From: Thermodesulfobacteriota bacterium
GTDB lineage: Bacteria; Desulfobacterota_D; UBA1144; Nemesobacterales; UBA2774
DNA: 64,000 nucleotides
Assembly: GCA_965216785.1 (NCBI GenBank)
Contig: OZ244197.1
Coordinates: forward strand, 64,001-128,000
Reading direction: 5' to 3'
Shown here piece by piece: positions 13,160-60,629 of this stretch (position 1 is the stretch's first letter; the number at the start of each line of letters is the position of its first letter). The notes beneath the pieces are model-generated. The model saw only the letters and a program-made list of their open reading frames with translations, searched no databases and was not told the origin of the DNA. Both the position numbers and the translations under genes were made by a program.

Positions 13160-13207
13160 TGGTCGGGGTGGCCGGACTTGAACCGGCGGCCTCTGCGTCC
13201 CGAACGC
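13160..13207 (-). repeat. Displaced 3' half of tRNA-Pro (outer att site of element A)
   Basis: 48 bp identical to 33273-33320 and 45803-45850. Confidence 0.95.
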
Positions 13208-41028: not shown

Positions 41029-41835
41029 ATGAAAAAATCAATCCTATTATTGTTAATCGTTTTAATACCAACATTTGCTGTTAGTCAGACGGCTGAAGAG
41101 TATTTTGATTTAAGTCTCAATAAAATTGATAATGGTGATTACTCAGGAGCAATACAAGACTTAAACAAGGCAATAGAGCTTAAACCTAATCAAGATGCAT
41201 ATAGCAATAGAGGACTTGCTAAATCTAAATTAGGTGACAATAGAGGTGCTATTGAGGATTATAACAAGGCTATAGAGTTAGACTCTAAATTTGCTCCGGC
41301 TTATAATAATAGGGGTATGGCAAAGGGTAACCTAGGGGACTACAGTGGTGCAATACTGGATTACAATAAGGCTATAGAGCTAAACCCCCAATTAACTGAT
41401 GCATATGCTGGTAGGGGTGATGCTAAATCTAAATTAGGTGACAATAGAGGTGCTATTGAGGATTATAACAAGGCTATAGAGCTAAACCCTAAATTTGCTT
41501 TAGCATACTACAACAGGGGTCTAGCTAAAGCTAAACTAGGTGACTTTAAAGAAGCTATACAGGATAATAACAAGGCTATAGAGCTAAACCCCAATCTTGC
41601 TTTAGCATACTACAACAGGGGTCTAGCTAAAGCTAAACTAGGTGACTTTAAAGAAGCAATGCAGGATTGGAATAAGGCTATAGAGTTAGACCCTAATCTT
41701 GGTTTAGCATACCTTAACAGGGGTGTCGTTAAGTTAAATAACGGTCAAAATGAATCCGCTTGCCAAGACTTCTCTAAGGCAGGTGAGATGGGTATTAGTC
41801 AAGCTTATGATGTTATAAAGCAATACTGCCAGTAA
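41029..41835 (+). CDS. Secreted TPR protein
   Basis: SQTAEEYF, KAIELNP repeats with ~60-nt identical DNA duplications, ACQD...YCQ cap. Confidence 0.9.
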   Translation: MKKSILLLLIVLIPTFAVSQTAEEYFDLSLNKIDNGDYSGAIQDLNKAIELKPNQDAYSNRGLAKSKLGDNRGAIEDYNKAIELDSKFAPAYNNRGMAKGNLGDYSGAILDYNKAIELNPQLTDAYAGRGDAKSKLGDNRGAIEDYNKAIELNPKFALAYYNRGLAKAKLGDFKEAIQDNNKAIELNPNLALAYYNRGLAKAKLGDFKEAMQDWNKAIELDPNLGLAYLNRGVVKLNNGQNESACQDFSKAGEMGISQAYDVIKQYCQ

Positions 41836-43649: not shown

Positions 43650-44266
43650 TTACTGGCAATACTTCTTGATTAAATCATAGGCATCCATATACCCTAGCTC
43701 ACCCGCTTTAGACAGGTCTAGACAGCCAGAATCTTTTTGACCTAGATTTATTTTAGCACCAGCTCTGTTGTAGTATGCCAGTGCACCTTTAGGGTCTAAC
43801 TCAATAGCCACGTTACAGTCTTGTATCGCTCCTCTGTTATCACCTAGATTTATTTTAGCACACACATTCTAGAGTAATCGTTAGCAGCCAGAGCATCAAA
43901 ATTAGGATTAAGTTCAATAGCTTTTTTACAATCCTGTATTACTCCCAAATCGTCACCTAAACCTGATTTGGAAATAGCCCTAATTTGATAAGCTAACATC
44001 AGGAATAAATTATAGTAATCAGTAATATTAGGATATGGATAATCTATTATTATTTGCTCAACAATATCAATCGCTTTGTTGCAGTTTTGTATTGCTCCTC
44101 TGTAATCTTTTTTTAGAGACATTCTTATTGCACTATTCCTTAAACGTGTGGCCTAGATTTCTTTGTCCCGCACCTCTTCTCTTATTATCTGGAATTGTTC
44201 AATAGTCTCGGCAAGAGCTAACTCAAGTGTTATCAATATCAATAAAAGAAGGATTGATTGTCTCAT
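43650..44266 (-). pseudogene. Disrupted secreted TPR paralog
   Basis: ATG 44266 with signal peptide; in-frame TAG at 44153-44155; frameshift in a (TG)n run near 43860-43868; GCLDLSKAGELG...YCQ cap. Confidence 0.8.
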
Positions 44267-44448
44267 ACTTATCCCATTATATTATTTTCTCTCTTAATTG
44301 TTATCCCACAGTCTTCTCTGGTTCTCTCTAGCATCCGCTCTGCTTCTGTGGACAGCTCCTGATATTTGATAATGTACTGCCCCCCATAATAGGTCCATAA
44401 GTAAAGTTTGGTTTTAGAAAAATGGAGCGGTACAAAAACTGATGTGCG

Positions 44449-44486
44449 TTGACTATGTTAGAATATGTAAGTATAATATACTTACA
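44449..44486 (+). promoter_or_regulatory. sigma70 promoter with overlapping palindromic operator
   Basis: TTGACT-17-TATAAT; perfect inverted repeat TGTAAGTATA-A-TATACTTACA (44466-44486). Confidence 0.7.
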
Positions 44487-44699
44487 GTGACAGCAAAAAG
44501 ATTAAGAACTAAAATGTTTCAGGTTTGGCTGCATCCGAAAGAGTATGAGTTTCTAAATACATATGCCAAAGAAAATATGATGACAGCGTCCGAGATAGTA
44601 CGCGGATGGATACACGAAGTCATGAAACGGGAAGGGCTTGTGATTAAGGAGCCTTCTCTTCCGGAGCTCTCAAAAACTAAAAAGGGGGTTAAGAATTAA
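44487..44699 (+). CDS. Ribbon-helix-helix (CopG-like) regulator coupled to the integrase
   Basis: KMFQVWL..KEYEFL..YAKE..MTASEIVRGWI; its stop overlaps the int ATG. Confidence 0.65.
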   Translation: MTAKRLRTKMFQVWLHPKEYEFLNTYAKENMMTASEIVRGWIHEVMKREGLVIKEPSLPELSKTKKGVKN

Positions 44700-45772
44700 T
44701 GGGGAGTGTATATCTGAGAGGTAATTCATATGTAGGCCAGTATAGAGATAGGGGCAGAATAGTACAGAAGACATTAGGGAAAAAAGGGGTAATTACAAAA
44801 ACAGCAGCTCGGGCAATTCTAGCGAAGCTGGAGGAAGCAGTCATGCTGAAGAAATACGACTTGCTCGATGCCGATATTCCCACCTTGAATGAATTTGCAA
44901 GTGAATATATTAAACATGGCAAAGAAGTATTAAAGAAGAGGTCATGGGAACGTGACATATATGGATTAAGACAGTTCAAAGAACACTATGGCAATCGCTT
45001 ACTTTCTGAAATAACATCTAGGAACATAGATGATTTCAAGAAGATTAGACTTAAAGCTGTCTCAACTGGTACTGTGAACAGGGAGCTACAATGTATTAGA
45101 AGTCTCTTCAATCTAGCTAAACGTTGGAAAAGATTTTTTGGTAATAACCCAGTTAGCGAAGCCAGACTTATACAGGTTAATAACCAAAAAGAGCGCATAC
45201 TTTCAAAGGAAGAAGAGGATAGACTTCTGGCACTCTCTAATCCTTACCTCAAGCCGATTCTGATTACAGCTTTAAACACTGGTATGAGGAAAAATGAGAT
45301 ACTTACCCTAAAGTGGACAAATATTGACCGAGATACTAGTGTGATAACACTGGAACATACCAATACTAAAACTAAAACAACTAGGCGGATACCTATAAAC
45401 TCCGTTCTTAGAAAGCTATTATTAGAGCAAATGCTTAAGTCAGGTGGTAATGAATTTATTTTTCTTAACCCGACGGGTAATCCATATAAACGACATGACT
45501 CAATTAAAGGAGCATTCGAAAGACTTTGTAAAAAGGCTGGTGTAACAGGACTCCGTTTCCATGACCTTAGGCATACCGCTGCGACTAGAATGATAGAAGC
45601 AGGAGCGTCTATTGTGGCCGTGAGTAAAATTCTTGGACACTCAGATATTAAAATGACTATGCGTTATACACATCCCGATACTTCCCTAAAAGAAGCCGTA
45701 GAATTGCTGACAAAACCTATTATTTCCGAGCCAACTACTGACATATCCACTGACAATGAAGAAATGGGTTAA
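44699..45772 (+). CDS. int: Tyrosine integrase of element B
   Basis: GMRKNE, HDLRH, LGH and RYTH catalytic residues. Confidence 0.95.
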   Translation: MGSVYLRGNSYVGQYRDRGRIVQKTLGKKGVITKTAARAILAKLEEAVMLKKYDLLDADIPTLNEFASEYIKHGKEVLKKRSWERDIYGLRQFKEHYGNRLLSEITSRNIDDFKKIRLKAVSTGTVNRELQCIRSLFNLAKRWKRFFGNNPVSEARLIQVNNQKERILSKEEEDRLLALSNPYLKPILITALNTGMRKNEILTLKWTNIDRDTSVITLEHTNTKTKTTRRIPINSVLRKLLLEQMLKSGGNEFIFLNPTGNPYKRHDSIKGAFERLCKKAGVTGLRFHDLRHTAATRMIEAGASIVAVSKILGHSDIKMTMRYTHPDTSLKEAVELLTKPIISEPTTDISTDNEEMG

Positions 45773-45802
45773 TGTGCTCCGAACGAAAGTGCCCGTAAAA
45801 AG

Positions 45803-45880
45803 TGGTCGGGGTGGCCGGACTTGAACCGGCGGCCTCTGCGTCCCGAACGCAACGCTCTAGCCAATCTGAGCTACACCCCG
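45803..45880 (-). tRNA. tRNA-Pro(CGG), intact, CCA encoded
   Basis: CGGGGTG TAGCTCAG...GCGTT CGG GACGC...GGTTCAAGTCC...CACCCCG ACCA cloverleaf. Confidence 0.97.
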
Positions 45881-46553
45881 TATTAAAGACTCAATATTTT
45901 ACCTAGTAAACATGACTTTTCTAGGCCAATTAAGACTCTATAGTTAGACAATGGTAAGACACCATAACCTACTATATTTCCTATGTAAGTATCTATTATA
46001 ACATAATATTCTCTATAAAGATAGTACTAGACACTACTAGAACTAGACTCATTTGAGTACATATTTGACTTGGCTAGTCAATAAGTTTCCTTTAATCTTC
46101 TACTATATTTAGAGGTAAGAGAATAGTGTCTCAGAGTGTTATAAACACTCATAATAGTAGGACTAATGGACTCTATATGACTATATGGTAATAATGGTGC
46201 TAGTCATAGTCTACAGTTGTACTCATAGAGCAATATTGGCTACTATAGACCCCCCTAGAAGACCCATAGGGGTACCTCTACACCACACAATATTCCAGCA
46301 TAGTACTCTTATGTGACCCCCATGATAATGAGGCTAGCTAAGTCCCCCACACACATATAAAATTATCAATAGACCCAGCTAGAAACATATATGACAATAT
46401 GCTCTTTTACTGTTCCCATAGTAAACATGAGAGCAGTTGGGCTTATGAATAGTACCAATAAATAATCCAACTTAAACTATGGAACTAATACCAACATCCG
46501 AACAATGACGATAATAGCTATTTTCGCTGCAGTCTTTCATTATTTTGACACTC

Positions 46554-46745
46554 TCAATCGATTGAAAAACAGTAACCAGATGGTTCAAAGTTCTTCTTGC
46601 CACATACACAACCAGAACCGCACATTGAGTGAGAAAAACACTTACCGGTAAAGCAGATACCAGCGAAGCAAGGCTTTGTCATATACACATAACCGGATAC
46701 TGCAACTGCTATTATAAAAACTCCAATCAAAATATATTTAATCAT
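46554..46745 (-). CDS. Small secreted Cys-rich, knottin-like peptide
   Basis: GGAGGT RBS, hydrophobic leader, C-x4-C-x5-C-x3-C-x-C-x10-C. Confidence 0.65.
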   Translation of the reverse strand: MIKYILIGVFIIAVAVSGYVYMTKPCFAGICFTGKCFSHSMCGSGCVCGKKNFEPSGYCFSID

Positions 46746-47375
46746 TATGCACCTCCATTTATAAGTGTTAAAGCCTACAATAGCCTATTATACATATATC
46801 TCCGTTTTCCAGAAAGCTGTATACTTTGATATACCAACTCAGCCTTTAGGAATATTCTCTTATAACTAGTTGATTTAGCCGTCTCCGACCTGTTATCCAA
46901 TTCTGTCAACTTGCATAAAAAAACTAATAATATCTTTATATTACGTATCCATGTCCACTATACGAGGGTCTAGTACTTATATTAAATATTGACCCTAGAA
47001 AATTACCAGTGATGAGTATTACGTAACTTACTCATATCACTGCATATTATCATTTAGGCACATCTATAATTTGCACTATGAGTCATTTACTGAGAAATAG
47101 TTGCTATAGACCTACAGAGATAATGGTTCAATTGAGACCTATCCACCCCATATCCAAGTGGATAAACTGTCACAAACACTAATACATAGTATATACTTTC
47201 TATTGTATAAATACTACAAATTACCTATTGACATTTGATAGATTATCAGGTTCAATGGTTTTTAACAAGACGTAGAATTATAGACCTAAACATAAATCAA
47301 GATAATCCAATGATAATAGTATCTTAGACCATGGTTTCGCAGATAGATCAATCTATGGCTCTGGAGTGATTAATA

Positions 47376-49643
47376 ATGAATGAATTAGAACTCAGTAGGA
47401 TAGATGATTCCAAGTACAATAGTGTAATAACCCCAGTAAAACGTGAAAAGAAGATACATGAGAACCCACTTATAATAGGATTTGATGCTAACTTATATCC
47501 TTATAAAGGAATGTTTCAGTATCTATCTCTGTCTTTCCATGTTGATGGGGAAACCAGAAGGTACTTTGCCAACGATATATATTATCCTTATAACACACCG
47601 CATACATGCAACGGTAAATACACTATAAAACTTCTTTCAGATTATATCTTTCATTTCCTTTCTGAACTTAAAATTGAATATGATTCAGACTGCATTTACC
47701 TCATAACCCATAATGCAAATGATGAATTAAGCCATTTTGATATATCTAAGAACTACAAACTAAAACCTATAGGTAAGGGTTTATGTTTAGAAGGCACAAT
47801 TAATAACACACTTCTAAATAAAGATCTCAAGCTCAGAATAATTGATATTTATAGCCTTATAAATAAAAGTCTCAAAGATATAGGCAATTATATAGGTATA
47901 CATAGAGTCACATGTAATGAGTTGTTTGAAAGACTTAAGGAATTGAGATTTGAGAATTTAGACATAAGCCAATTATTTGATGACGATATATTCGGGAATG
48001 ACTGCTTAATGGATGCTGAAATAACTTTTGAGGCATTCACGAGACTCAGGTTATTCTTTGTAGAAAATCATAATGTAGACATGCTCAACTTCTATTCACT
48101 CCCCTCACTAGCTGGATACATATTCCAGAGAGATCATATTAATAAACCAACTGTAAGATCAAAAACTATTAAAGAGGCTAGGAAGCAAAAGAAAACTCTT
48201 TCAGATGGTGATGAAAAATATTACGATGTTCCTCAGAAAAAAGAGATATTCAATGGTGATCTTAATGTTAGAAAATGTTCCATGTTGGCCTATCATGGAG
48301 CAAGGATAGAAACTTTCTGCAGAGGCCGGTTTGAAGACAAAAGACTCATATATTACGATGTAGATTCTCTATATCCTTCATCTTCCATACTACAGCCATT
48401 ACCAGTGGCTAATACTAGATGGGTTAACTACAATAAAAGAAACGCTGAAAAGTTTCTTAACCAAGCTGAGGGTTTCGTCGAGGTAGAGTTTAGCTATTCA
48501 CCTGAAACATTTTATCCATGCCTGCCTGTGTCTGGTCTAAGGGATAATATTCTATATTTCCCCCTATCTGGAATAACTTACTGCACTATTTCTGAGCTTA
48601 GAATGGCTATTAAGCTAGGTCTCAGTGATTATATGATTCTTTCAGGTTATTGTTTCTATCCTACCAAAAGAGAAAAGCAACACCCCCTAGCCAGCTTCAT
48701 GAATGACATGCTTGAGAGGAAGCAAAATTCTGAGAAGGGAAGTCTTGAATATATCATGTATAAAATGCAAATGAACTCCCTTGTTGGCAAGCTGGTACAA
48801 AGGGATAAGAACAATGAGACATTAGGAATGTTACATGAAGGCAGTATTTCCAGGGATGTATATGGGAGGGTTGATAATTATAGGAAAGCCAAGGTCGGTT
48901 CTCTGTGGTATCCGGAATGGGCTTCTCTAATTTTAGGAAAAGCTAGAGCCTTAATGTCTGAATTTATATGTAAGGGCACATATTTTATCTCCTCTGATTC
49001 CGTATTGTTACCAAAAGACATAGATATAAATTGTGATTCACTGGACGAATTAAGAAGTGTAGGAAGCAATCTCAGGAAAGAACATGATGTTGACCATGGA
49101 CTAATCATAAGAGCTAGATTGTATGCTCTAAATCCTCTAAATGAAAACCCTAGGCAAAGACATTTAGCTAGGCATGCTGTATCGTGTAAACCTGAAGAGT
49201 TTCGGAATATTATGATCGAGGGATATAAGACTAGAAACATTCCTGACATGTCGTTCACTTCTAAGAAAGCTGTTAAGTATGAAAAATCCATACTAGAAGG
49301 AAAACATTTAAACTCTATGGAAAAGAAGGAATCCAGTATTGAAATAAAATGGGATGGAAAGAGAAGACTATTTAAGGAAGTGGAGAATCCATTCTGTGAC
49401 TTTAGTTGGAGTAGAGCACTAGATGCCAAGGAAGTAGAAAACAATGATATGAGAAGACCTCCTAAACTGAAACCTGGAAGAAAGCAAGGTAAGAAGCTCG
49501 ATACTCCAAAGAAAAGGGACATTGTTAGACTATATAAGGAAGGCAAGAAACAAAAAGAAATAGCTAAGGAATTGGGTATATCCAAAGGATATGTAAGTAA
49601 GGTGTTCAAAGAATTTAATTTGAGTTATCGGGACTTGAACTAA
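47376..49643 (+). CDS. Family B DNA polymerase, piPolB-like, with C-terminal HTH
   Basis: YHGAR.E, DVDSLYP, P.LPV...LYFPL.G, KxxxNSLVGK.VQ, SSDS, WDGKRR; C-terminal KQKEIAKELGISKGYVSK. Confidence 0.85.
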   Translation: MNELELSRIDDSKYNSVITPVKREKKIHENPLIIGFDANLYPYKGMFQYLSLSFHVDGETRRYFANDIYYPYNTPHTCNGKYTIKLLSDYIFHFLSELKIEYDSDCIYLITHNANDELSHFDISKNYKLKPIGKGLCLEGTINNTLLNKDLKLRIIDIYSLINKSLKDIGNYIGIHRVTCNELFERLKELRFENLDISQLFDDDIFGNDCLMDAEITFEAFTRLRLFFVENHNVDMLNFYSLPSLAGYIFQRDHINKPTVRSKTIKEARKQKKTLSDGDEKYYDVPQKKEIFNGDLNVRKCSMLAYHGARIETFCRGRFEDKRLIYYDVDSLYPSSSILQPLPVANTRWVNYNKRNAEKFLNQAEGFVEVEFSYSPETFYPCLPVSGLRDNILYFPLSGITYCTISELRMAIKLGLSDYMILSGYCFYPTKREKQHPLASFMNDMLERKQNSEKGSLEYIMYKMQMNSLVGKLVQRDKNNETLGMLHEGSISRDVYGRVDNYRKAKVGSLWYPEWASLILGKARALMSEFICKGTYFISSDSVLLPKDIDINCDSLDELRSVGSNLRKEHDVDHGLIIRARLYALNPLNENPRQRHLARHAVSCKPEEFRNIMIEGYKTRNIPDMSFTSKKAVKYEKSILEGKHLNSMEKKESSIEIKWDGKRRLFKEVENPFCDFSWSRALDAKEVENNDMRRPPKLKPGRKQGKKLDTPKKRDIVRLYKEGKKQKEIAKELGISKGYVSKVFKEFNLSYRDLN

Positions 49644-49741
49644 TCACTATTTTATCTTCAATCTATCTTCACAATATGAGTCTAGTATATGTATCTAAAT
49701 ATAAGTTTGAAAAGTAGTGTGAATTTCTATAACTTAATAAT

Positions 49742-50521
49742 ATGATTTGTAAATCGGAACAATGTGGAAAGGAAATACCCAATAACTCAATATATTGCCC
49801 ATCTTGTGGTCATATTGTTGGCAACCAACCGCATAAAGTAATAGATGTAATTTATAGAAGTGGTATTTCAGAATTTAACGAAAATACAAGAATAAATCTA
49901 ATATTTAGTAGACATGATGTAGAGTTCCAAGAAAAACCCAAACTAAGTTTCCTAACAAATAAATTACACGAACCCAAGTATGTACTTTCTATAGATAATA
50001 TTAAAAGTGTCAAATTTTATGGAAGCACGGGAACAACTGCAATTAATACAGCAAACGGTGAAATAGTACTGTCAGAAAGACAATTTAGACTTTATGAAAT
50101 TTTTAGTCAATTATCAAATATTCCTTCAGATACTGTAGATGAGATTAAATCACCTCCATCGGATGCACCAGATTTACTTAAGTTCGTATGTATATCCCTA
50201 ATACTATTATCTCTTTTTGGCCTAAAACGATTCTTTAATAATGTAGGTAAAATTGATTTTAGCGATAATGCAAGTTTTGTATTAGGATTTTTTCTGAGCT
50301 TGCCAACTTTTATTTTGTTGATTCTGTCTTGCTACAAAATATTGCGAGGAAGAAAATGGGCATCATATTGTGCTCAAGTACTACTTGCCTTTTTTATATT
50401 GATAGCTTATCTAGAGTTTAAACTATCCCTTTTGGGAATATTAATAATCATAATCATATCAATTGTAATCTTTTATTTGAATACAAGAAAAGTAAAAGAC
50501 TATCTAAGGGATAAAAACTAA
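49742..50521 (+). CDS. Zinc-ribbon membrane protein
   Basis: N-terminal C..C...CPSCG; four C-terminal TM segments. Confidence 0.7.
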   Translation: MICKSEQCGKEIPNNSIYCPSCGHIVGNQPHKVIDVIYRSGISEFNENTRINLIFSRHDVEFQEKPKLSFLTNKLHEPKYVLSIDNIKSVKFYGSTGTTAINTANGEIVLSERQFRLYEIFSQLSNIPSDTVDEIKSPPSDAPDLLKFVCISLILLSLFGLKRFFNNVGKIDFSDNASFVLGFFLSLPTFILLILSCYKILRGRKWASYCAQVLLAFFILIAYLEFKLSLLGILIIIIISIVIFYLNTRKVKDYLRDKN

Positions 50522-50545
50522 TTAAGCCTGTTTGTTATGGATTGA

Positions 50546-50731
50546 CCTAAATTTTATAAGTCCTTACAGTTCGCTAATTCAGTTAGAGCTAAATATCCTG
50601 AAGCATACTTCCGTAGGGGTATAGAACGAATAAGCATCAGTCAGATAGAAACTAGCTGTCTAGATCTCTCAAAATCAGGTGAATTAGGATTTTTCCAAAC
50701 CTGCGATTATATAAAAGAAATATGCCAATAA
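50546..50731 (+). pseudogene. Remnant of the TPR-family C-terminal cap
   Basis: Start-less frame KYPEAYFRRG...SCLDLSKSGELGFFQTCDYIKEICQ*, homologous to the TPR caps in element B. Confidence 0.7.
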
Positions 50732-50744
50732 TCAAAACTACATT

Positions 50745-51788
50745 TCACTCTCTTTTATTTAGCCAGGGCAATCTAGACACGGTCTTTTTCTTATAATCGT
50801 TTGACACATGAGAGTAAATCATAGTAGTAGAAATACTAGAATGTCCGAGTAGTTCCTTAATAGAAACTAGGTCAACCTGATTCATGACTAAATGTGATGC
50901 AAAAGTATGTCTTACTGAGTGAGGGGTAGCTTTTATTCCGGCTTTAGAACATGCTTTATTGAAGCTGTTCTTAATACTCGTAACCCTAGAACCATCAGGG
51001 TGACAGATTAGATAGTTTTTCTGGTCAGCATGTCTAATTGAGACCTGCATTGATTTGGGATGTACATAGTACTTACTCAACCATTCTAACATTTCACTTA
51101 ACTCATAATTGATAGGAACTATCCTGTAGTTGCTAGTCTTCTGACTTTTCACTATGATCACATTATTCTCCAGGTCTATATCAGTGAATTTAAGCTGTAA
51201 TACCTCTCCTATCCTCATGCCGGTATTCCTTAGAACTATTATTATAGGTCTGAGCCATGCACTAGAGCACTCTAATAGACGCTGAACTTCTTCAATAGAT
51301 AGAAAGTTAGGTGGTCTTTTTGGTAGCTTTAAAATAGTAATATGAGGCACTTTTTCAATAAAGTTCCACTCTAATGCCTTTTTTAGTATGGCACTAAGAA
51401 CTGTAAGTTCTCTATTGAGACTAGAAGGAGCCAACCCTTGATCTATTCTGATAGATTTATAATCCTCAATGCATTTATTATCTATCTTCGCTAGACTCAA
51501 ATTACCAAATGAAATCTTGAGATGTTTGATGGCCTGAATTTCTCTTTTATATGTGGATTTCGCCTTATTGGTTTTACAATATTTCAGGTATTGATCTATA
51601 TAGTCATAAAAGAGTATTTCTTTAGTCTCTCTAATGTCTAACCTACCCTTTATATGTTCCAGTTCCAATTGCTTTAGAATCTTTCTGGCTTCCTTCTTAT
51701 CTACTCTCCCAATTCTAATCCACTTCTTCTTTCTATTAATACTGAATACGGCATAATAAGAATTATGTTTGTATGCTAATGAAGCCAT
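50745..51788 (-). CDS. int: Tyrosine integrase of element C
   Basis: GMRIGE, HSVRH, LGH and IYSH catalytic residues. Confidence 0.95.
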   Translation of the reverse strand: MASLAYKHNSYYAVFSINRKKKWIRIGRVDKKEARKILKQLELEHIKGRLDIRETKEILFYDYIDQYLKYCKTNKAKSTYKREIQAIKHLKISFGNLSLAKIDNKCIEDYKSIRIDQGLAPSSLNRELTVLSAILKKALEWNFIEKVPHITILKLPKRPPNFLSIEEVQRLLECSSAWLRPIIIVLRNTGMRIGEVLQLKFTDIDLENNVIIVKSQKTSNYRIVPINYELSEMLEWLSKYYVHPKSMQVSIRHADQKNYLICHPDGSRVTSIKNSFNKACSKAGIKATPHSVRHTFASHLVMNQVDLVSIKELLGHSSISTTMIYSHVSNDYKKKTVSRLPWLNKRE

Positions 51789-51970
51789 AGCATGCCTCCT
51801 GAAGTTGATTCACAGGAAGGTCCTTCAGTAGATGGTGGGTTTTAACATTATCTGGTAAGTCTAGGGCTGTTTGGTTAGAACATGGTTAGACAGCCTTGGC
51901 CTTAACTGGACTAGGAACCATATAACATATTGTACTTACTAGGTATTTTAGGTGGGTCTAAGGTGGTATA

Positions 51971-52017
51971 CTCTGCGTCCCGAACGCAACGCTCTAGCCA
52001 ATCTGAGCTACACCCCG
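51971..52017 (-). repeat. Displaced 5' half of tRNA-Pro behind its probable native promoter
   Basis: 47 bp identical to 45834-45880; upstream TTGCAA-16-TAAATT on the minus strand. Confidence 0.93.
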
Positions 52018-52188
52018 TGAGCATTTAATTTACTATAAATAGAGCGGGTTGCAAGAGAGCATAGTGTACTTTTTTCAGTGCTTTTCTGTACACGCCCTCG
52101 GTGTATTAAATATTGCCATTGAAATATGGATGACACTTAATACTTATCTAGCTTCGATACAGCCTTTAAGAGGTTCGGTTGATTGTAT

Positions 52189-52560
52189 CTAGTCCGAGCA
52201 CACCCACTCTTTTTGTTCGGGATTATATTCGAAGGAATCACACCACCCGTCCATCCACCAGTCTTCCCCTACGGTATAATTATTCCACCAAAAGTTTGCT
52301 GTGCCGGAGACAGTTTCTTTTTGTAATTTGCCTACATTTGTGAATTGAACCCTATCACTCTCACCCAATATCGCATCATCAGTTACTTCAACAACCACAA
52401 AAGAGATTTCCTCATCATCTTTTGTTATTATTTTTACTTTATCCCCAGGTTCTATGAGCGTTTGGATACTAGAAGGATTGTTTTTAATGCCCACATAGCT
52501 AGCGAACGGGGAACAGGATACAAAAAATGTTAGTAAGACGAATAATGTATATTGATTCAT
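52189..52560 (-). CDS. Lipoprotein
   Basis: FVSC lipobox. Confidence 0.65.
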   Translation of the reverse strand: MNQYTLFVLLTFFVSCSPFASYVGIKNNPSSIQTLIEPGDKVKIITKDDEEISFVVVEVTDDAILGESDRVQFTNVGKLQKETVSGTANFWWNNYTVGEDWWMDGWCDSFEYNPEQKEWVCSD

Positions 52561-52590
52561 TCTAATTAGGCTCTTCTAAACTGTTTCATA

Positions 52591-53532
52591 TTATTGAATC
52601 TCATTCACAACATTTACTGTGATATCACCAATTGCCCTAGTCAACATATTCACTACAAGTTCAGTATTGCTTTGCATGTCTTCCACATATTCACATTTAG
52701 GGTCATAATACAATTCCTCTCTTTCCCAAATGACTCTTCCATTTCTGGTTGAAACCATTTTCCCTTTTAAGTCTATCCACGTTCTAACTGAATATTGGAC
52801 ATATCTTTCTATAATCGGTTTCAATGTCTCTAGCTCTTTTAGCAATTCTGCTTGCTTATTAGATATTGCCGTTTCAGAACTAAATAGAAGCTCATTTACA
52901 CCACTTGGACCTATACGGCTATAAGTGTATTGACCATAAACTTCATTCCATCTCGTTATAGCTTCGTTATATCCTGTATCATCTGAGCTTAGCGGTCCCA
53001 AATAAGGTTTCTCCCCGATGAAACCCGATACAAGCTGTTTAGGGCAAAGCTTTACTTCAATATTTTCTATAGCAATATCCAACACCGTGTCAAAACCTTG
53101 TTGTGCCAATATCGAGGGGCTTTGAACTTTTGAAATCTCAGCTTCGAAAGAAGCACCCGTATTTTCAAAATAATCATCAATATGCTCAGACAATAATGTA
53201 TCAATATTGATTTCGGATATATCTTCTCCAAATTCATCCGCATAATTACTGTCTATGTTACTTCTGCGTAATTCTTCAACCACCATAGCTACCAAAAGGA
53301 AAGGTGCTATCAATCCTGAGGCTTCACTATTCATAAAAATCTCGTAATATCTTTTTTGCATCTTAGAAATATTTGCCTGGAGCTCTTCGTCTGCTTGTAC
53401 ATGTATAGCCATTTTTTTGATTCTGGATTTATCCGGTTCAGTTAGAGGAATAATAGTCCTGGTTTTAGGGGCGCAGGATGCTGATAGGATGAACAGGCTT
53501 AAACAAAATATAAAAAATGATTTGTGTTTCAT
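52591..53532 (-). CDS. Lipoprotein
   Basis: SASC lipobox. Confidence 0.7.
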   Translation of the reverse strand: MKHKSFFIFCLSLFILSASCAPKTRTIIPLTEPDKSRIKKMAIHVQADEELQANISKMQKRYYEIFMNSEASGLIAPFLLVAMVVEELRRSNIDSNYADEFGEDISEINIDTLLSEHIDDYFENTGASFEAEISKVQSPSILAQQGFDTVLDIAIENIEVKLCPKQLVSGFIGEKPYLGPLSSDDTGYNEAITRWNEVYGQYTYSRIGPSGVNELLFSSETAISNKQAELLKELETLKPIIERYVQYSVRTWIDLKGKMVSTRNGRVIWEREELYYDPKCEYVEDMQSNTELVVNMLTRAIGDITVNVVNEIQ

Positions 53533-53550
53533 TTTATTTTCCCTGTTTTT

Positions 53551-54606
53551 TTACGGACCGCTGCCGGTGTTTTCATCGGAAATGATTGTCCGGTCGCCAG
53601 TGAATTGGTCTATAAACACAACTGCACGTATATCACGTTCTCTATCAATTACTACAAAATCTCCATCTGCAGTCACTGCAATGGCTTTAGGGAGCAGTAT
53701 TTCCGGACCCATGCCGACGTTTCCATCAGATATGATTGAGCGGTCGCCTGTGAACTGATCAACATGCACTACAGCACCCATACCAGAATCAACTACCACA
53801 AAATCTCCACCAGGCGTCACTGCTATATCCTCGGGCATGTCAAATTCCGGTCCAATCCCGGTCGTCTCATCGGAAATGATCGTGCGGTCGCCTGTGATCT
53901 GATCCACATGTATTACGGTACCGAAGCCACCCAATCCAGTAACAATATCAAGTACTATATAATCCCCGTCTGATGTTGATTCTATGCTAACAGGGACCTC
54001 TATGCCCGGACCATTGCCCGTATTCTCATCAGAGATGATCGTACGGTCTCCCGTGATCTGATCTACATGTACTACTGCGGTCTGAAATCCATTAACCACC
54101 ACAAAATCGCCATCTGGTGTCACTGCCAAATCTCTCAAAAAGAAAAACTCAGGCCCGACACCAGTGTTTTCATCGGAAATGATTGTTCTCTTACCTGTGT
54201 TTTGATCTACATTCGCAACCGTGTTACCACCAAGTACTGCAAAATCCCCGCCTGCTCTTACCGCAATTCGACCAATACCAATATTCGCACCACCTCCCGT
54301 ACGGTCTTTATCTAGGGGTGCAAATTGTGAGATTATCACACGATCCCCTGTAACCTGATCCACATGCACTAACGCCCCCTGATCAGCCACCGCAAAATCT
54401 CCATCTGGCGTTACTACTATGTCATTAGGTTCGTGAAAGCCCATGAAAGGCTCGGACGGTCTAGAACGATTACAGTTTGAGCTCCCTCCAAGGACGCCGC
54501 AGCCTATTCCACAGCATTCAGGAGTATCGCAAGCCGATAATGAGACACTTATCATAATGACTAATAATAGAAAGCCCTGGAGTTTATATCCTTTAACGGT
54601 ATTCAT
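53551..54606 (-). CDS. Lipoprotein with beta-propeller-like repeats
   Basis: LSAC lipobox; ~6 repeats of VHVDQ.TGDRTIISDE.TG.GP; ATG overlaps the upstream TGA. Confidence 0.75.
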   Translation of the reverse strand: MNTVKGYKLQGFLLLVIMISVSLSACDTPECCGIGCGVLGGSSNCNRSRPSEPFMGFHEPNDIVVTPDGDFAVADQGALVHVDQVTGDRVIISQFAPLDKDRTGGGANIGIGRIAVRAGGDFAVLGGNTVANVDQNTGKRTIISDENTGVGPEFFFLRDLAVTPDGDFVVVNGFQTAVVHVDQITGDRTIISDENTGNGPGIEVPVSIESTSDGDYIVLDIVTGLGGFGTVIHVDQITGDRTIISDETTGIGPEFDMPEDIAVTPGGDFVVVDSGMGAVVHVDQFTGDRSIISDGNVGMGPEILLPKAIAVTADGDFVVIDRERDIRAVVFIDQFTGDRTIISDENTGSGP

Positions 54607-55730
54607 ACATTTAACCTCCGCATTGGTTTTCTGAATTTTCTCTGGCAACGACCTAATCCTATTCTCACGGCGGCTATTACCAAAGGGATAAATAGAAAAA
54701 CCGGAATCGATGAAGCAGGGCCAATTGGCGCTACAGAACACCCACCGCCGGCTCCGGCTCCTGCACCGCCAAGTGCCACAGAGAAAACCTGGACACGGTC
54801 AGATTCTACAACGTATACATTGCCTGAGCTGTCCACGGCTACTCCATTTGGGGATACGATTTGAATCCTAGCATTTTCGTCGCTACTGCCGAACTTGAAA
54901 AGAAAGTTTCCGTTTAAATCGAATATCTGGATGCGATTATTGTTAGCGTCTGCGACGTATATATTGCCGGAGCTGTCGAGCGCAATGTCAGCAGGAAACA
55001 TAAATTCACCATCACCTGTCCCATTACTGCCGAACTTGAAAATAAAATTTCCGTTTGAATCAAATTTCTGGATGCGATGATTAGCCGAGTCCGCAACGTA
55101 GATATTCCCAGAATTGTCCAACTCTATATCTAAAGGCCCCATAAACTCGCCATCGCCCGAGCCTTTAGCGCCGAATTTAAAAATGAAATTGCCGTTTGAA
55201 TCAAATACTTGCACGCGATTATTCTCTTGCGCATGAATATCATTATTCGAGTCTGTGACGTAGATATTCCCTGAGCTGTCTAATGCGATGGCAGATGGAA
55301 ATCCAAATTCACCATCATCCGAGCCTTGTGTGCCGAACTCGAAAATGAAATTGCCGCTTGAATCAAACTTCTGGATGAGGCGATTCAATGCATCAGCTAC
55401 GTATATATTGCCTGAGCTCTCCAACCCCAAATCTGTTGGGCCGTCAAATAAGCCGTCAGTATGATTGGTTATGAACTCGAAAATGAAATTGCCGTTTGAA
55501 TCAAACTTCTGGATACGTTTATTTTCAGTGTCTGCAACGTAGATATTGCCTACGCTATCCAATTCTATATCAGATGCACCATCAAATTCGCCTTCACCGG
55601 AACCACAGGACCCAAAAGTTAAAATCAGAGTTACGGATGCTGCAAAAACAATATTCGTTATTATGACCATGAGTAATGGTATTAAAGTGATGGGACGCAA
55701 TATATTCATTACAGTTTGTTTGAATTTCAT
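54603..55730 (-). CDS. NHL-repeat beta-propeller with GC-TM C-terminal sorting signal
   Basis: Six DSSGNIYVAD..N.RIQ.F repeats; GGGCS + TM + basic tail. Confidence 0.85.
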   Translation of the reverse strand: MKFKQTVMNILRPITLIPLLMVIITNIVFAASVTLILTFGSCGSGEGEFDGASDIELDSVGNIYVADTENKRIQKFDSNGNFIFEFITNHTDGLFDGPTDLGLESSGNIYVADALNRLIQKFDSSGNFIFEFGTQGSDDGEFGFPSAIALDSSGNIYVTDSNNDIHAQENNRVQVFDSNGNFIFKFGAKGSGDGEFMGPLDIELDNSGNIYVADSANHRIQKFDSNGNFIFKFGSNGTGDGEFMFPADIALDSSGNIYVADANNNRIQIFDLNGNFLFKFGSSDENARIQIVSPNGVAVDSSGNVYVVESDRVQVFSVALGGAGAGAGGGCSVAPIGPASSIPVFLFIPLVIAAVRIGLGRCQRKFRKPMRRLNV

Positions 55731-55774
55731 GTTAGATCCTCCTTCTTGTATTAAAAATGAGACATTTTTTACAT

Positions 55775-57082
55775 TCAGAATGCACATTCATCAAACTCAA
55801 CTTCACTTGGGAATCGTATCTGTATCCAATTATGAACTATCAAATTTTGCTCTTCTGTGTGTGTTTTCATCAAATTGTTCTTATAGTAATAAGACATATT
55901 ATTGTCTCGAAGCAGTTGAAAGATTTGTCCGTTAAGATTAACAGTCGTAGCCGCAGTGCAGTCGATCTCGCGTATAAAGGGATCAGGTGGCGTATCTAAG
56001 AGACCGTCACCATCGAATACACTTGCGTTGCCCCCGTTATCGAAAAGAAAATCCTCGGCTTCGGCTAGAGTGTCGAATTCCTTGGCAAATGTGTGGCTGA
56101 GTCCAAAGTAATGGCCAATTTCATGTCCAAATAGTTCTATATTCTGCTCTCCACAGATACCAGTATCGTTAAATCCCGGCATAACAATGAAGTCATATCC
56201 AGTCGAAGAGAAACCTCCTCCAGTAGGAAAATTCCCGGGTCCGTGACGGAAGAATACAACTATTTTATTTGGGAACTCTGCCGCAATTGAATTACCAAAA
56301 CTCCTTACATTTTCCCATACCGGACCTGACGTGGACGAAAAGAGTATATTGTTCATATCTGTGTTCATTACTTCCATCCAATCAGGCCCCGTCTCACTTG
56401 GCTCAAACTCAAACTGAATTTTAGAATTGGCAAAGGTCTCGTTAGCTTTGTCTAGCCAAAGTTTCACCTCTTGCGGTGTGATATTGGCACTACGGCTACC
56501 GTCGTCATCAGATACTCTTACAGCAAGTACACGTATAGTTATATTCTTTATATCACATTGAAAACCAGTGCCGCACAGACTCTTTTCATCTAACCTGCAA
56601 GGCTCAAATCTAAACTCTCCGGACGCTACAGGGCTTAAATTCCCGCGGTTGTCCTCGGCCTGCACGGTCCACGTCCAGCCGCCAAGGTTGCTATCTATCA
56701 CAAACGAGTTACAGCTTGTATCGGTATATTCTGAATTGGGTACAAAAGTATTGATTATTGGTAATGTAGCTCCGGTACGCATAACAAATATGTGATAGCC
56801 TTTAATTCCGTTAGGTGAGTCGGAATCGGTCCAATCAAAAAAAATTCTATGGCCATAACCACGGACGGGATCAAGAGGACAGCCTATGCTCGGATTGTTC
56901 TGCTCGATTACATCGTGATTAATCGGTGTCAGCAGGACAGGTGTCGTTACATTTACAGCTTGCTCTGGCGGCGGATCTTCTGTAAATGAGTCTCCATCTT
57001 GCCCGCTGTTACAACCGCCGACTACTCCGAGCCCTATCAATACGACTAATACAGAAAATCCAATTAATTTTAGGTGTCTCAT
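55775..57082 (-). CDS. Lipoprotein zinc metalloprotease (M43/pappalysin-like metzincin)
   Basis: VGGC lipobox; HEIGHYFGLSHTF; DGLLDTPPDP; NNMSY Met-turn. Confidence 0.8.
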   Translation of the reverse strand: MRHLKLIGFSVLVVLIGLGVVGGCNSGQDGDSFTEDPPPEQAVNVTTPVLLTPINHDVIEQNNPSIGCPLDPVRGYGHRIFFDWTDSDSPNGIKGYHIFVMRTGATLPIINTFVPNSEYTDTSCNSFVIDSNLGGWTWTVQAEDNRGNLSPVASGEFRFEPCRLDEKSLCGTGFQCDIKNITIRVLAVRVSDDDGSRSANITPQEVKLWLDKANETFANSKIQFEFEPSETGPDWMEVMNTDMNNILFSSTSGPVWENVRSFGNSIAAEFPNKIVVFFRHGPGNFPTGGGFSSTGYDFIVMPGFNDTGICGEQNIELFGHEIGHYFGLSHTFAKEFDTLAEAEDFLFDNGGNASVFDGDGLLDTPPDPFIREIDCTAATTVNLNGQIFQLLRDNNMSYYYKNNLMKTHTEEQNLIVHNWIQIRFPSEVEFDECAF

Positions 57083-57231
57083 AATTACCCTCCAATAAGT
57101 TTTTTGCCACATGCCTAGACTTATAAACTACTTTTATGTCGATTAGCGCTATCAGTGCTATATTGCGTGTCGTTCTGCACCACCGTAGCCTCCTATTGGG
57201 GAACTCTTCGATTTATAATTCACCCTTTCCC

Positions 57232-57342
57232 TCAATCTTTGATCTTATTAACTATCTCTATAGCAAACAAGAAAAGCGCTATAAGCACTGGACATAACCC
57301 ATATATACAAACATCAATAATCTCATTAAACCACGCATCCAT
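57232..57342 (-). CDS. 36-aa single-TM small protein
   Basis: MDAWFNEIIDVCIYGLCPVLIALFLFAIEIVNKIKD* with a GGGGTG RBS. Confidence 0.35.
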   Translation of the reverse strand: MDAWFNEIIDVCIYGLCPVLIALFLFAIEIVNKIKD

Positions 57343-57597
57343 ATTTACACCCCACTCTTGTAATCTATTGTTAAAGACCCTTATCCATAATTCAGACGTT
57401 TCCACTTAGTTATGTCTATTAATGTGCTCACATCATTCAGGGATTCGGAGAGCATTGTATAGATTCCAAATATATAGAAGCTGAAGAAAATGAGAATAAG
57501 AGAGCAAATCCCCAGGATTTGAAGTAGGTATTTAAATCTTTTAAGTTCGTTCATTTCTTACCTCTTTTTAATTCGCATTGAATTTCCCATTCAGGAA

Positions 57598-57667
57598 ATG
57601 AACACTGTTTAATTCCATAGTATCACAGAATTGAACACTGTTCAAGAGGTAATTTAACAATGTTCAA
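57598..57667. promoter_or_regulatory. Three TetR-type operator palindromes
   Basis: TTGAACACTGTTCAA (57631-57645) and variants at 57598-57612 and 57653-57667, upstream of TetR. Confidence 0.7.
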
Positions 57668-57684
57668 AAAAATCAGTTATACTT

Positions 57685-58293
57685 ATGTATATGGGAAGAA
57701 GAAGCGATCATTCACGTGATAAGATTAAGCAGATGGCTATAGATGCAGGAAGGAATTTAATAGAAACTAAAGGCTTTTCAGGGCTAAGTGCGAGGAAGGT
57801 CGCAAAAGAAATAGGATACACGGTGGGAACATTATACAATGTATTCGATAACTTCACTGACCTAATTTGTCACATAAACTACACTACATTGGAAAGCCTA
57901 AAGGCACATCTTGAAGAAAACTCCAAACCCGGCAAAAACAGAGTCGAGGCGCTAAAACAGCTAGGAGAGTCTTATGTCGAGTTTGCAAGAGACAACACTC
58001 ACCTTTGGTCTGCTCTATTTGAATTTCAGCATCCAAAAGATTATCTATTGCCAAAATGGTATTCCGATAAGGTCAGGAGCATTTTCGAGCTGCCGGTAAA
58101 AATTATAGCTCCAATATTCAATGGAAACATGAATAGGGCGGAATATGAAACAAGGGTAGTTTGGGGAGGCGTTCACGGAATATGCCTTTTAGGTGTAAGC
58201 GATAGACTAGGTCTCGGCAGTGACGAATTGCTCAAATCAAAAGTAAATTCTCTTATCACTAATTATATGAGAGGAATGGGTGTTGAAGAATGA
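57685..58293 (+). CDS. TetR-family regulator (WHG-type C-terminus)
   Basis: LSARKVAKEIGYTVGTLYNVF; WGGVHG. Confidence 0.9.
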   Translation: MYMGRRSDHSRDKIKQMAIDAGRNLIETKGFSGLSARKVAKEIGYTVGTLYNVFDNFTDLICHINYTTLESLKAHLEENSKPGKNRVEALKQLGESYVEFARDNTHLWSALFEFQHPKDYLLPKWYSDKVRSIFELPVKIIAPIFNGNMNRAEYETRVVWGGVHGICLLGVSDRLGLGSDELLKSKVNSLITNYMRGMGVEE

Positions 58294-58338
58294 ATTCAGC
58301 TAGATAATTCCTCTTTAATCCATGTTTGAATTGCTCGA

Positions 58339-59073
58339 CTACATCCTGTTACACCTTAACACAACCGCTCCACCGCTCGAATAATTTCCGGCAGGCGTGA
58401 AGATCGGATCAAGTCCCGACATGTAATCCCCTTCATTTCTAAGAGTGAAGTTCTTGCCCGCCATATAGTAACCATCCGGGAACTCTATATATATATCAGC
58501 CTTATTTTTACCCTTGACGTCTCCGCTTATTTTGCCCCCGCCTTTATTTTTTATCCATATATGGTCATTTGCATTACCAGAAATATGCCCTTCAAGATTA
58601 CTTCCATTTTGCCTGATGTTGAGTATCGCTTTGCCGCATTCCCACATACCTGAAAAGCTCTTAACCTTTGGATCACGGATAGATGGATCCATATTTAAAG
58701 CCTCATATGTTACACCCCAATATATGGAATTCGGATTCTGATCCACGCCGGGATTATTTCTCTGAAAAGACTTTTTTGTTTTATAATATTTACCTGTTCT
58801 AGGGTTTTTGTATCCTCTTGCCTCTGCATGCAAAGTTATTATCCCTACAGGCACACCTAAATCATGATATCCCCCGGGGGGTATTTCTATCTCATTAGTT
58901 ATCGTTTTCTTACTATAGTCAAGAGAGTGATCCGAATAGTACTCCGCCCATACCGTTAAAGTAACTCCTGTGTTATTTTTGATTGTTGCAGCAGTAAGCG
59001 GCCTATAAGCAAATGAATTATCCGCTAAACAAAAGAGAAGAATAAATGCCATAACTGATGTAACAGATTTCAT
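58339..59073 (-). CDS. Secreted hypothetical protein
   Basis: Signal peptide ending SFA. Confidence 0.65.
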   Translation of the reverse strand: MKSVTSVMAFILLFCLADNSFAYRPLTAATIKNNTGVTLTVWAEYYSDHSLDYSKKTITNEIEIPPGGYHDLGVPVGIITLHAEARGYKNPRTGKYYKTKKSFQRNNPGVDQNPNSIYWGVTYEALNMDPSIRDPKVKSFSGMWECGKAILNIRQNGSNLEGHISGNANDHIWIKNKGGGKISGDVKGKNKADIYIEFPDGYYMAGKNFTLRNEGDYMSGLDPIFTPAGNYSSGGAVVLRCNRM

Positions 59074-59227
59074 ATCTAGATCCTTCCATTAATTGATTCT
59101 AAAAGAAGCAGGTTGGCTTCTACCTTGTCATTTTTGATTCAGTCTCTTCATGAGCTACATCTCATTGAGAGTTAATTTACTATAGCATGAGTGGACTGCA
59201 AAATATATATATTGAAACTGAGAAGGA

Positions 59228-59683
59228 TTATTTAATTACCGCGTCCTGCATCCGCTCTGAGTAGTCCCAGGTATATAGCTTTTGGGGGGTTATTATTATC
59301 GCTACTTCATCGCCGCGCGAAAGGAGATAATTGGCCAGACTTGAATCCGTGCCACCTAAGTAACGGATGATCAACTCTTCCAAAATATCCATCGCTCCCT
59401 CCTCTACCAAATTTACCGTTCCCTTCCCTCTTATGCCGCGGTAGGGAGGGGTTTCGGGAGCTATCTCAAATGCGCAGCGGGGGTCTTGACTAAGAAACTT
59501 TACGAGCTTGGAGCTTTTCTGAGTGGAGCAAATGAGCTTACCGTCTGAGTACAGATACCAAAGAGATAGGATCATAGGCCAGCCCTGTGTTGTAATACAC
59601 GAGAGGCGAAGAGGAATGTTGGTATCTGTGAGAAACCTCTCGTCCTGATCAGATAATAGGGTCTTTTTTACAGTATCCGCCAT
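59228..59683 (-). CDS. Pyridoxamine 5'-phosphate oxidase-like protein
   Basis: GWP...SLWY; K...L..DPRCAF; WDYS. Confidence 0.8.
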   Translation of the reverse strand: MADTVKKTLLSDQDERFLTDTNIPLRLSCITTQGWPMILSLWYLYSDGKLICSTQKSSKLVKFLSQDPRCAFEIAPETPPYRGIRGKGTVNLVEEGAMDILEELIIRYLGGTDSSLANYLLSRGDEVAIIITPQKLYTWDYSERMQDAVIK

Positions 59684-59891
59684 CGCATTAAGAAGTCATA
59701 CGCGCCGCAGCGCCGAGCGCTTTTGACTTATTTAGAAGAATTTTAACTGCTAAATCACAAAGAACGCTGGAGCCTTTACTTTCCGACTAATTTAAAGATA
59801 GCTGATCCTCAGTTCTCAGTCTATTCAATTAGTACGGTTCTTGACTGATATGACGCGGCACATACACTCCGCCCGTGTGCTTTTTTAGACT

Positions 59892-60275
59892 CTAAACACT
59901 TGGGGGAAAGAGCCTTGACAGGCTGCCGTAGCAGTCGGGACATATGAACTGGTTTACAGAAACCATAACCAAACTGCCGCCTGCGTGGCCGCATGCCCAG
60001 CAGCGAAAAGCCTCAAGCGGCTTTATATCACTCTCCGCCTGCTCGCTACCGTGATATTTATCGTACAATGATTGGGAAGTGCCTTTGTATTCCATGAGAC
60101 GGCAGAGCACGTACTCATTGCGCTTACGCTCGTGGTACTTCTCGTCTATGTACATGTAAATGAGCATCCGGGGGCCCGAATGAAGAGAGAAAGGATTAAA
60201 AGCTTCTCTTATATCCTCGAAACTATGAGCTTCTTTTTCCTTCTTTAACTGCAAAACGCCGTTCTTATTATTCAT
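59892..60275 (-). CDS. Hypothetical protein with C-terminal zinc ribbon
   Basis: CWAC...CPDC; AGGAGG RBS. Confidence 0.6.
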   Translation of the reverse strand: MNNKNGVLQLKKEKEAHSFEDIREAFNPFSLHSGPRMLIYMYIDEKYHERKRNEYVLCRLMEYKGTSQSLYDKYHGSEQAESDIKPLEAFRCWACGHAGGSLVMVSVNQFICPDCYGSLSRLFPPSV

Positions 60276-60629
60276 ATCGCCACCATCCTCCTTGGGTCTG
60301 TTTACCCTATGAATAAAATAAGTCCTCGTTTACTGAAGCTTCAATATCGACAATACACCGTCAGAAAAGCGAAACGGCTTTCTTTTAAACCTCCTTATGT
60401 ACGTATGGTTTTTAAAACCGGGAAAAACGAGTGAGACAATAAGTCATTATCACAGGCCTGAAAGGGATTTCTGGGCCCGGATGAATCTCCGCCACCTAAT
60501 TTTTGATATATGGAAGTCATATCATGACATCCTTTAATCTTTTAAAGGATATAACCAACAGAAGAAAAAATGTCAAGAAAGCGTCCTTAATATAAAAACT
60601 TTATCTTGGAAGCCTAATTGATGGAATGC

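Follow-up and report, generated by a model that had tools for sequence, protein, structure and literature searches.

Element C, at positions 45881-51970 of the 64,000-nt stretch of DNA that was analysed (the window), is a 6.1-kb island with a tyrosine integrase; the part of tRNA-Pro(CGG) that it carries is the 5′ half rather than the usual 3′ half. In our view the island is likely to have entered by recombination at the anticodon loop, its polarity being that of the conventional relatives, and likely supplies the tRNA gene with a working replacement promoter. C is a real 5′-replacement tRNA island of a known class, and the basic 5′-replacement layout is already known. The reading is built on four findings: the repeat is exact, the integrase is intact, the arm sites stand at a fixed distance from the loop, and the flank that begins at 45881 originates from the element.

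The intact tRNA-Pro(CGG) gene (45803-45880, minus strand) represents attR and consists of an element-derived 5′ half and a 3′ half. It is the sole tRNA gene of the window and the sole CGG isoacceptor among the 45 tRNA/tmRNA genes of the 3.12-Mb source genome, and an Rfam scan of 44000-60500 returned nothing but this gene. A first-pass annotation had proposed that the duplicated sequence is the 5′ half, and this was confirmed: a 48-bp direct repeat, with its attR copy at 45834-45881 and its attL copy at 51971-52018 (both minus strand), is 100% identical between the copies and corresponds to tRNA nt −1 to 47, so that it covers nt 1-47 and the base just before them (BLAST E 2e-18). The orphan 5′ fragment (nt 1-47, 52017-51971) lies 6.1 kb upstream of the intact gene on the same strand. 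Along that strand, the order is promoter P2, orphan fragment, integrase gene (int C), zinc-ribbon gene, PolB-HTH gene, 63-aa peptide gene, putative promoter P3 and intact tRNA, followed downstream by element B, a tRNA 3′ copy (nt 31-78, at 33273-33320), element A and a second 3′ copy of the same extent (13160-13207). Common to all 5′ and 3′ copies are nt 31-47, which include the anticodon loop (nt 34-40; 45841-45847, minus strand); this loop, from which the arm sites stand at a fixed distance, is the presumed 7-bp crossover overlap. The G+C content of C is 34%, compared with 46% for the genome. No attP/attB joint was found among the contigs of four sequencing runs, and contigs drop rare forms. 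The one joint listed there, 53612-57234, lies outside the element and fits a paralogous region elsewhere in the genome; 57234-58324 is paralogous to G000:C1:881003-882093 (89%) and 53551-53809 to G000:C1:879945-880197 (69%).

The flank native to the tRNA was identified by a survey of 46 loci with tRNA-Pro(CGG) from relatives and metagenomes, which, after removal of three that were too short and five duplicates, left 38 distinct upstream flanks. The native type, TTG..-N16-TA(A/G)ATT, occurred in 24 of the 38, the element type in five (the window included) and neither in nine, three of which look native with a 17-nt spacer; the element-type class was defined from the same sequences that it counts, and the loci are kin rather than independent samples. 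The orphan copy had been said to keep a promoter-like TTGCAA..TAAATT, and it does: promoter P2 (TTGCAA-N16-TAAATT, 52027-52054, minus strand) is located 9 nt before the orphan fragment and ranks first in the whole genome against a matrix built from the 24 native-type flanks with the source genome excluded, while a second site, P1 (59201), ranks 21st and P3 190,789th. At locus L188 the right end is of the C type (77% over 380 nt) and its arm sites are intact. Downstream, a stretch of 3179 nt matches the empty genome G006 at 99.4% identity, and the tRNA of G006 has the native promoter, 160 nt from and just after a host aldo-keto reductase gene. This same-species empty/occupied pair shows that the 45881+ flank is element DNA, so the test that the annotation itself had named, a comparison with empty-site genomes in which the 45881+ sequence might have proved native, went the other way. 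The empty relatives found are G001 and G006, both from species other than the source species. That the 45881+ flank is nevertheless native in this genus, with the 52018+ unit being foreign or duplicated, or the arrangement an assembly artefact, is very improbable. Such a reading could point to G002, a same-genus genome (82% complete) with a P3-like flank directly before the tRNA and no integrase match, and to the 48-bp repeat, which the short-word contigs cannot phase. The G002 flank contains degenerate arm-site sequence and is therefore read as a remnant; in G001, the other genome of this genus, the promoter is of the 52018 type; G028 has the identical attL junction followed by an integrase 77% identical to int C; and replacement is seen within one species in the G006/L188 pair. 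As for the assembly, independent assemblies of the source sample contain a single 6149-nt unitig (45852-52000) that spans both junctions. Further unrelated flanks precede tRNA-Pro(CGG) at L003, L021, L199 and L201, and arm-like repeats 130-150 nt before the loop at L003 and L199 suggest other promoter replacements.

The polarity of the integration was assessed through the integrase and its arm-type sites. Int C (50745-51788, minus strand; 347 aa; PF00589, E 6e-35) has an intact R192-K217-H290-R293-H316-Y325 set, scores below the XerC/XerD and integron cut-offs, begins 183 nt in from the orphan end and is directed inward. As had been described, its direction is opposite to that of the integrases of the 3′-type elements A (32183-33370, plus strand; 34% identical to int C) and B (44699-45772, plus strand; 29% identical), which face their own att ends. 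Homologues of int C (E ≤ 1e-40) were found in 23 of 120 genomes of the class, and a tree of 31 rows placed int C in a 22-member clade (100/100), with A and B outside; these distant integrases are thus the wrong comparison. Within the clade, C and G028 group with four integrases of tRNA-Thr(CGT) sites (58-64% identity, support 100/99), one of which is in the source genome. The survey of homologous integrases for 5′-type att sites, which had been proposed as a check, recovered both of two arrangements: in four of the 22 members (C, G028, G066 and G022) a 5′ fragment of tRNA-Pro(CGG) runs sense to int, and three (G056, G068b and G005b) are inverted, with an intact tRNA antisense to int and a far-end 5′ fragment found for two. 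Ten show the standard layout of an intact tRNA sense to int (3′ fragment found for two), two have a partial sense tRNA and three have no tRNA.

The P-arm pair of arm-type integrase sites in C (45942-45959, minus strand) lies at −112..−94 from the loop and the P′-arm pair (51873-51890, minus strand) at +87..+105, and the same positions are occupied in the 3′-type Thr elements G005 and G000b. Pairs were also located at −111..−93 and +87 in G021, at −112..−94 in L188 and at +87 in G028 and G066; G011 and G005b yielded none. With 751 genome-wide matches at two mismatches the arm motif is permissive, and the weight rests on exact position. Alignment of the right end of C to those of the Thr elements gave scores of 74 and 67 against shuffle maxima of 50 and 38. 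The shared arm-to-loop positions indicate that the attP scaffold and polarity are unchanged and that only the tRNA-bearing side differs, a side-swap without inversion on a fixed attP scaffold, which is a new detail. The 94-bp spacing is not universal in the clade, since P arms are longer in G022, G013 and G066, where they end at −156, −158 and −152, respectively. These findings do not support the proposal that C integrates backwards, because its arm-to-core geometry and its int-to-tRNA polarity are those of its nearest 3′-type Thr relatives. The mechanism behind that proposal, in which the site is used in reversed orientation with an inverted attP core, does yield 5′ replacement and is exemplified by the three inverted clade members, and the direction of int C relative to A and B would agree with it. 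In the inverted members, however, the intact tRNA is antisense and adjoins int, whereas in C the tRNA is sense and the intact copy stands at the far end, and the arm geometry of C is exactly that of the Thr elements; the inversion reading of C is largely refuted, and we regard it as highly unlikely. A 2002 report by Zhao and Williams is said, by its title, to concern orientation reversal in an element with the 5′ part of its target tRNA gene. Opposite polarity relative to integrase relatives, the mark of that type, is absent from C, which keeps the polarity of its 3′-type relatives, while G056 and G005b fit the reversal better. A single clade of the four Pro-5′ integrases, a group named after inspection of the tree, was rejected (AU p 0.001), which points to repeated origin or integrase exchange.

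On the other side of the element, the intact tRNA is preceded by element DNA with a TAAAAT −10 hexamer, as had been noted, although the hexamer lies at 45901-45896, one base from where it had been placed. The putative element-borne promoter P3 (45881-45923, minus strand) comprises a −35-like TAGAAA (45923-45918), a 16-nt spacer, this −10 and a 15-nt leader to the tRNA, compared with 6-14 nt in the native type. The −35 is weak (four of six matches), and a promoter scan of the region performed at chance level (10 candidates vs. a shuffle mean of 8.2). On visual inspection, TTTACT-N17-TTTAAT was discarded as an alternative promoter, since transcription from it would begin within the tRNA. In C, L188, L196 and L211, the −35, −10 and leader are conserved and the spacer is variable; in L196 and L211 the arm zone has fallen to chance identity (0.28), with 0.67 for the −35, 0.83-1.0 for the −10 and 0.93 for the leader, so that a promoter-sized stretch is what remains. 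The tRNA behind the P3-type flank of L196 and L211 is identical to that of the window at 78 of 78 positions, and the tRNA is unchanged in all five carriers of an element-type flank. Between the reductase gene and the tRNA, L196 shows P3 only, without a native promoter, 5′ fragment or integrase match; in G014, to which L196 is about 89% identical, the native promoter is present. G002 also keeps a degenerate version of P3. The 22-nt P3 motif (two mismatches allowed) occurs in one of the 120 class genomes, the window's own, and thus no native donor lineage was found among them.

From these sequence patterns, we are fairly confident that P3 is a working tRNA promoter, and the claim that the element supplies the promoter of the tRNA is accordingly upheld as probable, given that the −35, −10 and leader persist in L196 and L211 where the arm sites are gone. 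The annotation's wording that the element controls expression of the tRNA is an overstatement if regulation is meant. Promoter domestication in relatives, a new detail, is probable. The main competitor, which we judge unlikely, accepts the same integration and holds that P3 is no real promoter but a conserved IHF or recombination site, with the tRNA silent or read through and Pro(CGG) dispensable. An IHF-like 13-mer (45889-45901, plus strand) overlies the P3 −10 and matches the IHF consensus at 12 of 13 positions in C, L188 and L211; this overlap means that recombination could explain part of the P3 conservation, and three HU/IHF-family genes are present in the source genome. The chance-level promoter scan is in line with this account, as is the co-directional 63-aa peptide gene, which ends about 670 nt upstream of the tRNA. 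In addition, Pro(CGG) can be deleted in E. coli according to PMC9643105, and with a Pro(TGG) in the source genome selection for expression may be weak. Against it, the P3 stretch outlasts the arm sites, L196 and G002 have lost the IHF match yet keep TA(A/G)AAT and the 16-nt spacer, the tRNA is invariant among the carriers, and CCG accounts for about 30% of the proline codons of long open reading frames.

The native promoter had also been proposed to fire toward int. P2 does face int, at a distance of 239 nt, and since no terminator-like site was found between the two, read-through into int is plausible; a consensus scanner did not call P2, and the leader between fragment and int folds no better than shuffles (z 0.75). 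The arrangement is not special, however, as the Thr relatives share the geometry and tRNA followed by int in the same direction is the commonest layout among tRNA-integrase pairs (736 of 1273, in the consulted portion of PMC2951348). The same portion describes the KplE1/intS case (STI), which resembles C in a tRNA sequence placed before and co-directional with int, the region upstream of int overlapping attL and arm sites, from which autoregulation is predicted; in C, int is preceded by no more than the 5′ half of the tRNA, and the functional gene lies at the opposite end. As the likely course of events, the lineage would have arisen from 3′-type tRNA-Thr(CGT) elements by a target switch, in which the 94 bp that separate P arm and crossover would have kept their length while taking up a promoter (61 nt) and tRNA nt 1-33, leaving the P′ side without a tRNA 3′ copy. 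Integration would then place the host promoter and 5′ half at attL, facing int, while the tRNA would be read from the element promoter. Excision would bring P3 to face int in the circle, and int would thus stand behind a tRNA promoter in both states, P2 when integrated and P3 when excised. Upon decay of the element, P3 could stay as the host's tRNA promoter. G022, G013 and G066 have a different promoter solution, a native-type promoter combined with a longer P arm.

An older event is suggested at 59.2 kb, where P1, a relic native-type promoter with a decayed 14-nt tRNA 5′ fragment (10 of 14 matches; 59151-59201, minus strand), keeps the fragment at the same 9-nt distance as in P2. P1 is probably the trace of an older 5′-side insertion. 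In G001 the tRNA follows a homologue of the 127-aa gene at 59892-60275, which places the ancestral tRNA site near P1. The 7-kb P1-P2 stretch may itself be this older insertion with its integrase lost, in which case P2 would be a native-type replacement. No integrase was found in 52019-59150, and no arm pair placed as expected was found around P1 or P2. P1 lies about 80 nt before a 244-aa gene, which it may drive.

5′ replacement had been called rare, which is an overstatement here: the layout is uncommon overall but not in this genome. In the Islander report (Hudson, Lau and Williams, PMC4383910), 159 of 3919 islands carry 5′ fragments, and 5′ recombination is described as ‘considerably less frequent’ (PMC6563490), whereas the source genome has exact 5′ fragments upstream of four tRNAs, Pro(CGG), Leu(CAA), Ser(TGA) and Arg(CCT), each sharing at most six upstream bases with its own intact copy. 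The three further islands occupy G000:C1:1322020-1330340 (Leu(CAA)), 1598985-1618944 (Ser(TGA)) and 1806935-1825231 (Arg(CCT)). No tyrosine integrase was seen in the Leu(CAA) island; in the Ser(TGA) and Arg(CCT) islands the end of int lies immediately before the intact tRNA, and a replacement promoter would accordingly sit in or near the int tail. The source genome also holds a standard 3′-type tRNA-Thr(CGT) element (G000:C1:2672267-2682606; int 59% identical to int C); after it comes a 2.3-kb unit that has no integrase and whose right end is nearly identical. Elsewhere, A/B-type integrases appear in reversed layout at L036 (G036:C10), L182 (G019:C96) and L203; G019 apparently has two stacked 5′-type elements at tRNA-Arg(TCT); and L176 (G005:C1:272000-291500), at tRNA-Arg(CCT), combines an inverted 5′-type element with a second integrase on the opposite side of the tRNA, with more than 80 nt of upstream sequence duplicated along with the fragment.

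With the 5′ site-A islands of Islander, as far as the consulted parts describe them, C shares an upstream same-strand 5′ fragment, an internal tyrosine integrase, a size within 2-200 kb and, presumably, a crossover at the anticodon loop. By the marks used there, C has a same-strand end fragment, 5′ and upstream of the gene, and a non-Xer, non-integron tyrosine integrase, and it is absent from empty relatives. Those parts do not separate inverted from side-swapped 5′ islands or treat replacement promoters. In the present case, a single integrase clade includes both 5′ routes, and a single tRNA gene bears 3′- and 5′-type elements at the same time. The literature searched, which covered a minority of subscription journals, yielded no paper on side-swapped versus inverted 5′ islands. 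In tRNA-dependent lysogeny, likewise, the host tRNA is disrupted without 3′ reconstruction at attL and an element promoter drives the tRNA, as it probably does in C, but those phages carry a whole separate tRNA and a core of about 10 bp in the part of PMC10865867 consulted, whereas in C half a gene is rebuilt at attR, the core is 48 bp and the element contains no second tRNA.

Among the other genes of C is that of PolB-HTH (47376-49643, plus strand; 755 aa), a divergent family-B DNA polymerase (PF03175) with a C-terminal HTH, predicted to be the element's own replication enzyme. It is present in six of the 120 class genomes, where it always shares its contig with a gene of the int-C clade and is convergent to it, and a profile search retrieves 476 cluster representatives (E ≤ 1e-30). 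Across 149 long relatives D328 does not vary, and D541 and K463 are each conserved in 148; D541 is followed by S (111), A (21) or G (17), the first PolC Asp being absent, and the R, R and Y of RARLY in C recur in 138, 108 and 127, respectively. The ExoI glutamate, present in 121 of the 149, is replaced by N in C, which may have cost the enzyme its proofreading. The family further replaces the PolB-motif Tyr by V/I and KxY by RxxY, and none of its hundreds of relatives is closely annotated. The structural model (pLDDT 86.7) best matches the His1 polymerase (E 7e-21) and the phi29 polymerase (E 1e-13); of four annotated relatives tested, a Staphylococcus plasmid polymerase (TTDG, KTRG) ranks first (E 1.6e-36, N-terminal 480 positions only), and identity to annotated relatives is about 25%. 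The element also encodes a 259-aa zinc-ribbon protein with a hydrophobic C-terminus (49742-50521, plus strand; homologues in two related elements) and a 63-aa Cys-rich secreted-looking peptide (46554-46745, minus strand; homologues 42-46% identical in two tRNA-Thr elements), which has a weak lantibiotic-family score below the cut-off. No virion genes were found for C. Viral scans gave 80 loci at 24-41% identity to int C and three weak matches to the polymerase, and a single-protein scan of database genome contigs gave three distant integrases (27-29% identity). TPR-repeat genes occur in element B (33644-34462, 41029-41835 and 43650-44122), and similar-looking ones in the source genome's tRNA-Thr element.

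These traits recall the pipolins, which, in the consulted parts of PMC5695915 and PMC11551731, are likewise small, with a tyrosine integrase, a tRNA target, direct repeats and no virion genes found. The phi29-like PolB without the first PolC aspartate adds to the likeness, and the model of PolB-HTH has an overall phi29-like (pPolB/piPolB) fold. Integrase, tRNA target and direct repeats are present with both ends in C, G005, G056 and G066 and in part in G011 and G021. The motifs differ, with xS(T/S)DS, RxRLY and KxxxNSL(V/I)GK in the C family against SxTTDG and KH-X8-KTRG in those parts of the pipolin reports: C has FISSDSV in place of PolC SxTTDG and RARLY in place of KH-X8-KTRG, and, unlike in the pipolins described there, its PolB has a fused C-terminal HTH. 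The motifs that define piPolB are thus lacking, and element C works like a pipolin but is at most a candidate member of that group. A pipolin-like polymerase in a 5′-replacement island is a new detail. The PolB-HTH group is not described in the consulted parts of PMC7544198, PMC11551731 and PMC4104785, nor was a paper on this family found in the same literature search; pipolin datasets may include the family. More speculatively, and with less than even confidence, C would belong to an undescribed family of pipolin-like, self-replicating islands, with the integrase convergent with a possibly primer-independent PolB-HTH, in which one integrase clade reaches tRNA genes in three layouts (standard, inverted and side-swapped) on a fixed attP scaffold and the side-swapped layout acts as a ratchet that permanently replaces the host tRNA promoter. 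The ratchet is suggested by G002, L196 and L211, which keep the element promoter with no element integrase found beside it.

The relic promoter and the PolB-HTH gene are features absent from the first-pass annotation, and PolB-HTH is a candidate for testing the reach of primer-independent synthesis among family-B enzymes. Two look-alike routes to 5′ replacement are separated here, a flip of the site and a move of the tRNA homology to the other arm. The base-exact spacing shared with the tRNA-Thr elements makes a natural before/after pair for the acquisition of attP sites by integrases, and the pattern in the relatives suggests that a core gene can acquire a new promoter from a mobile element.
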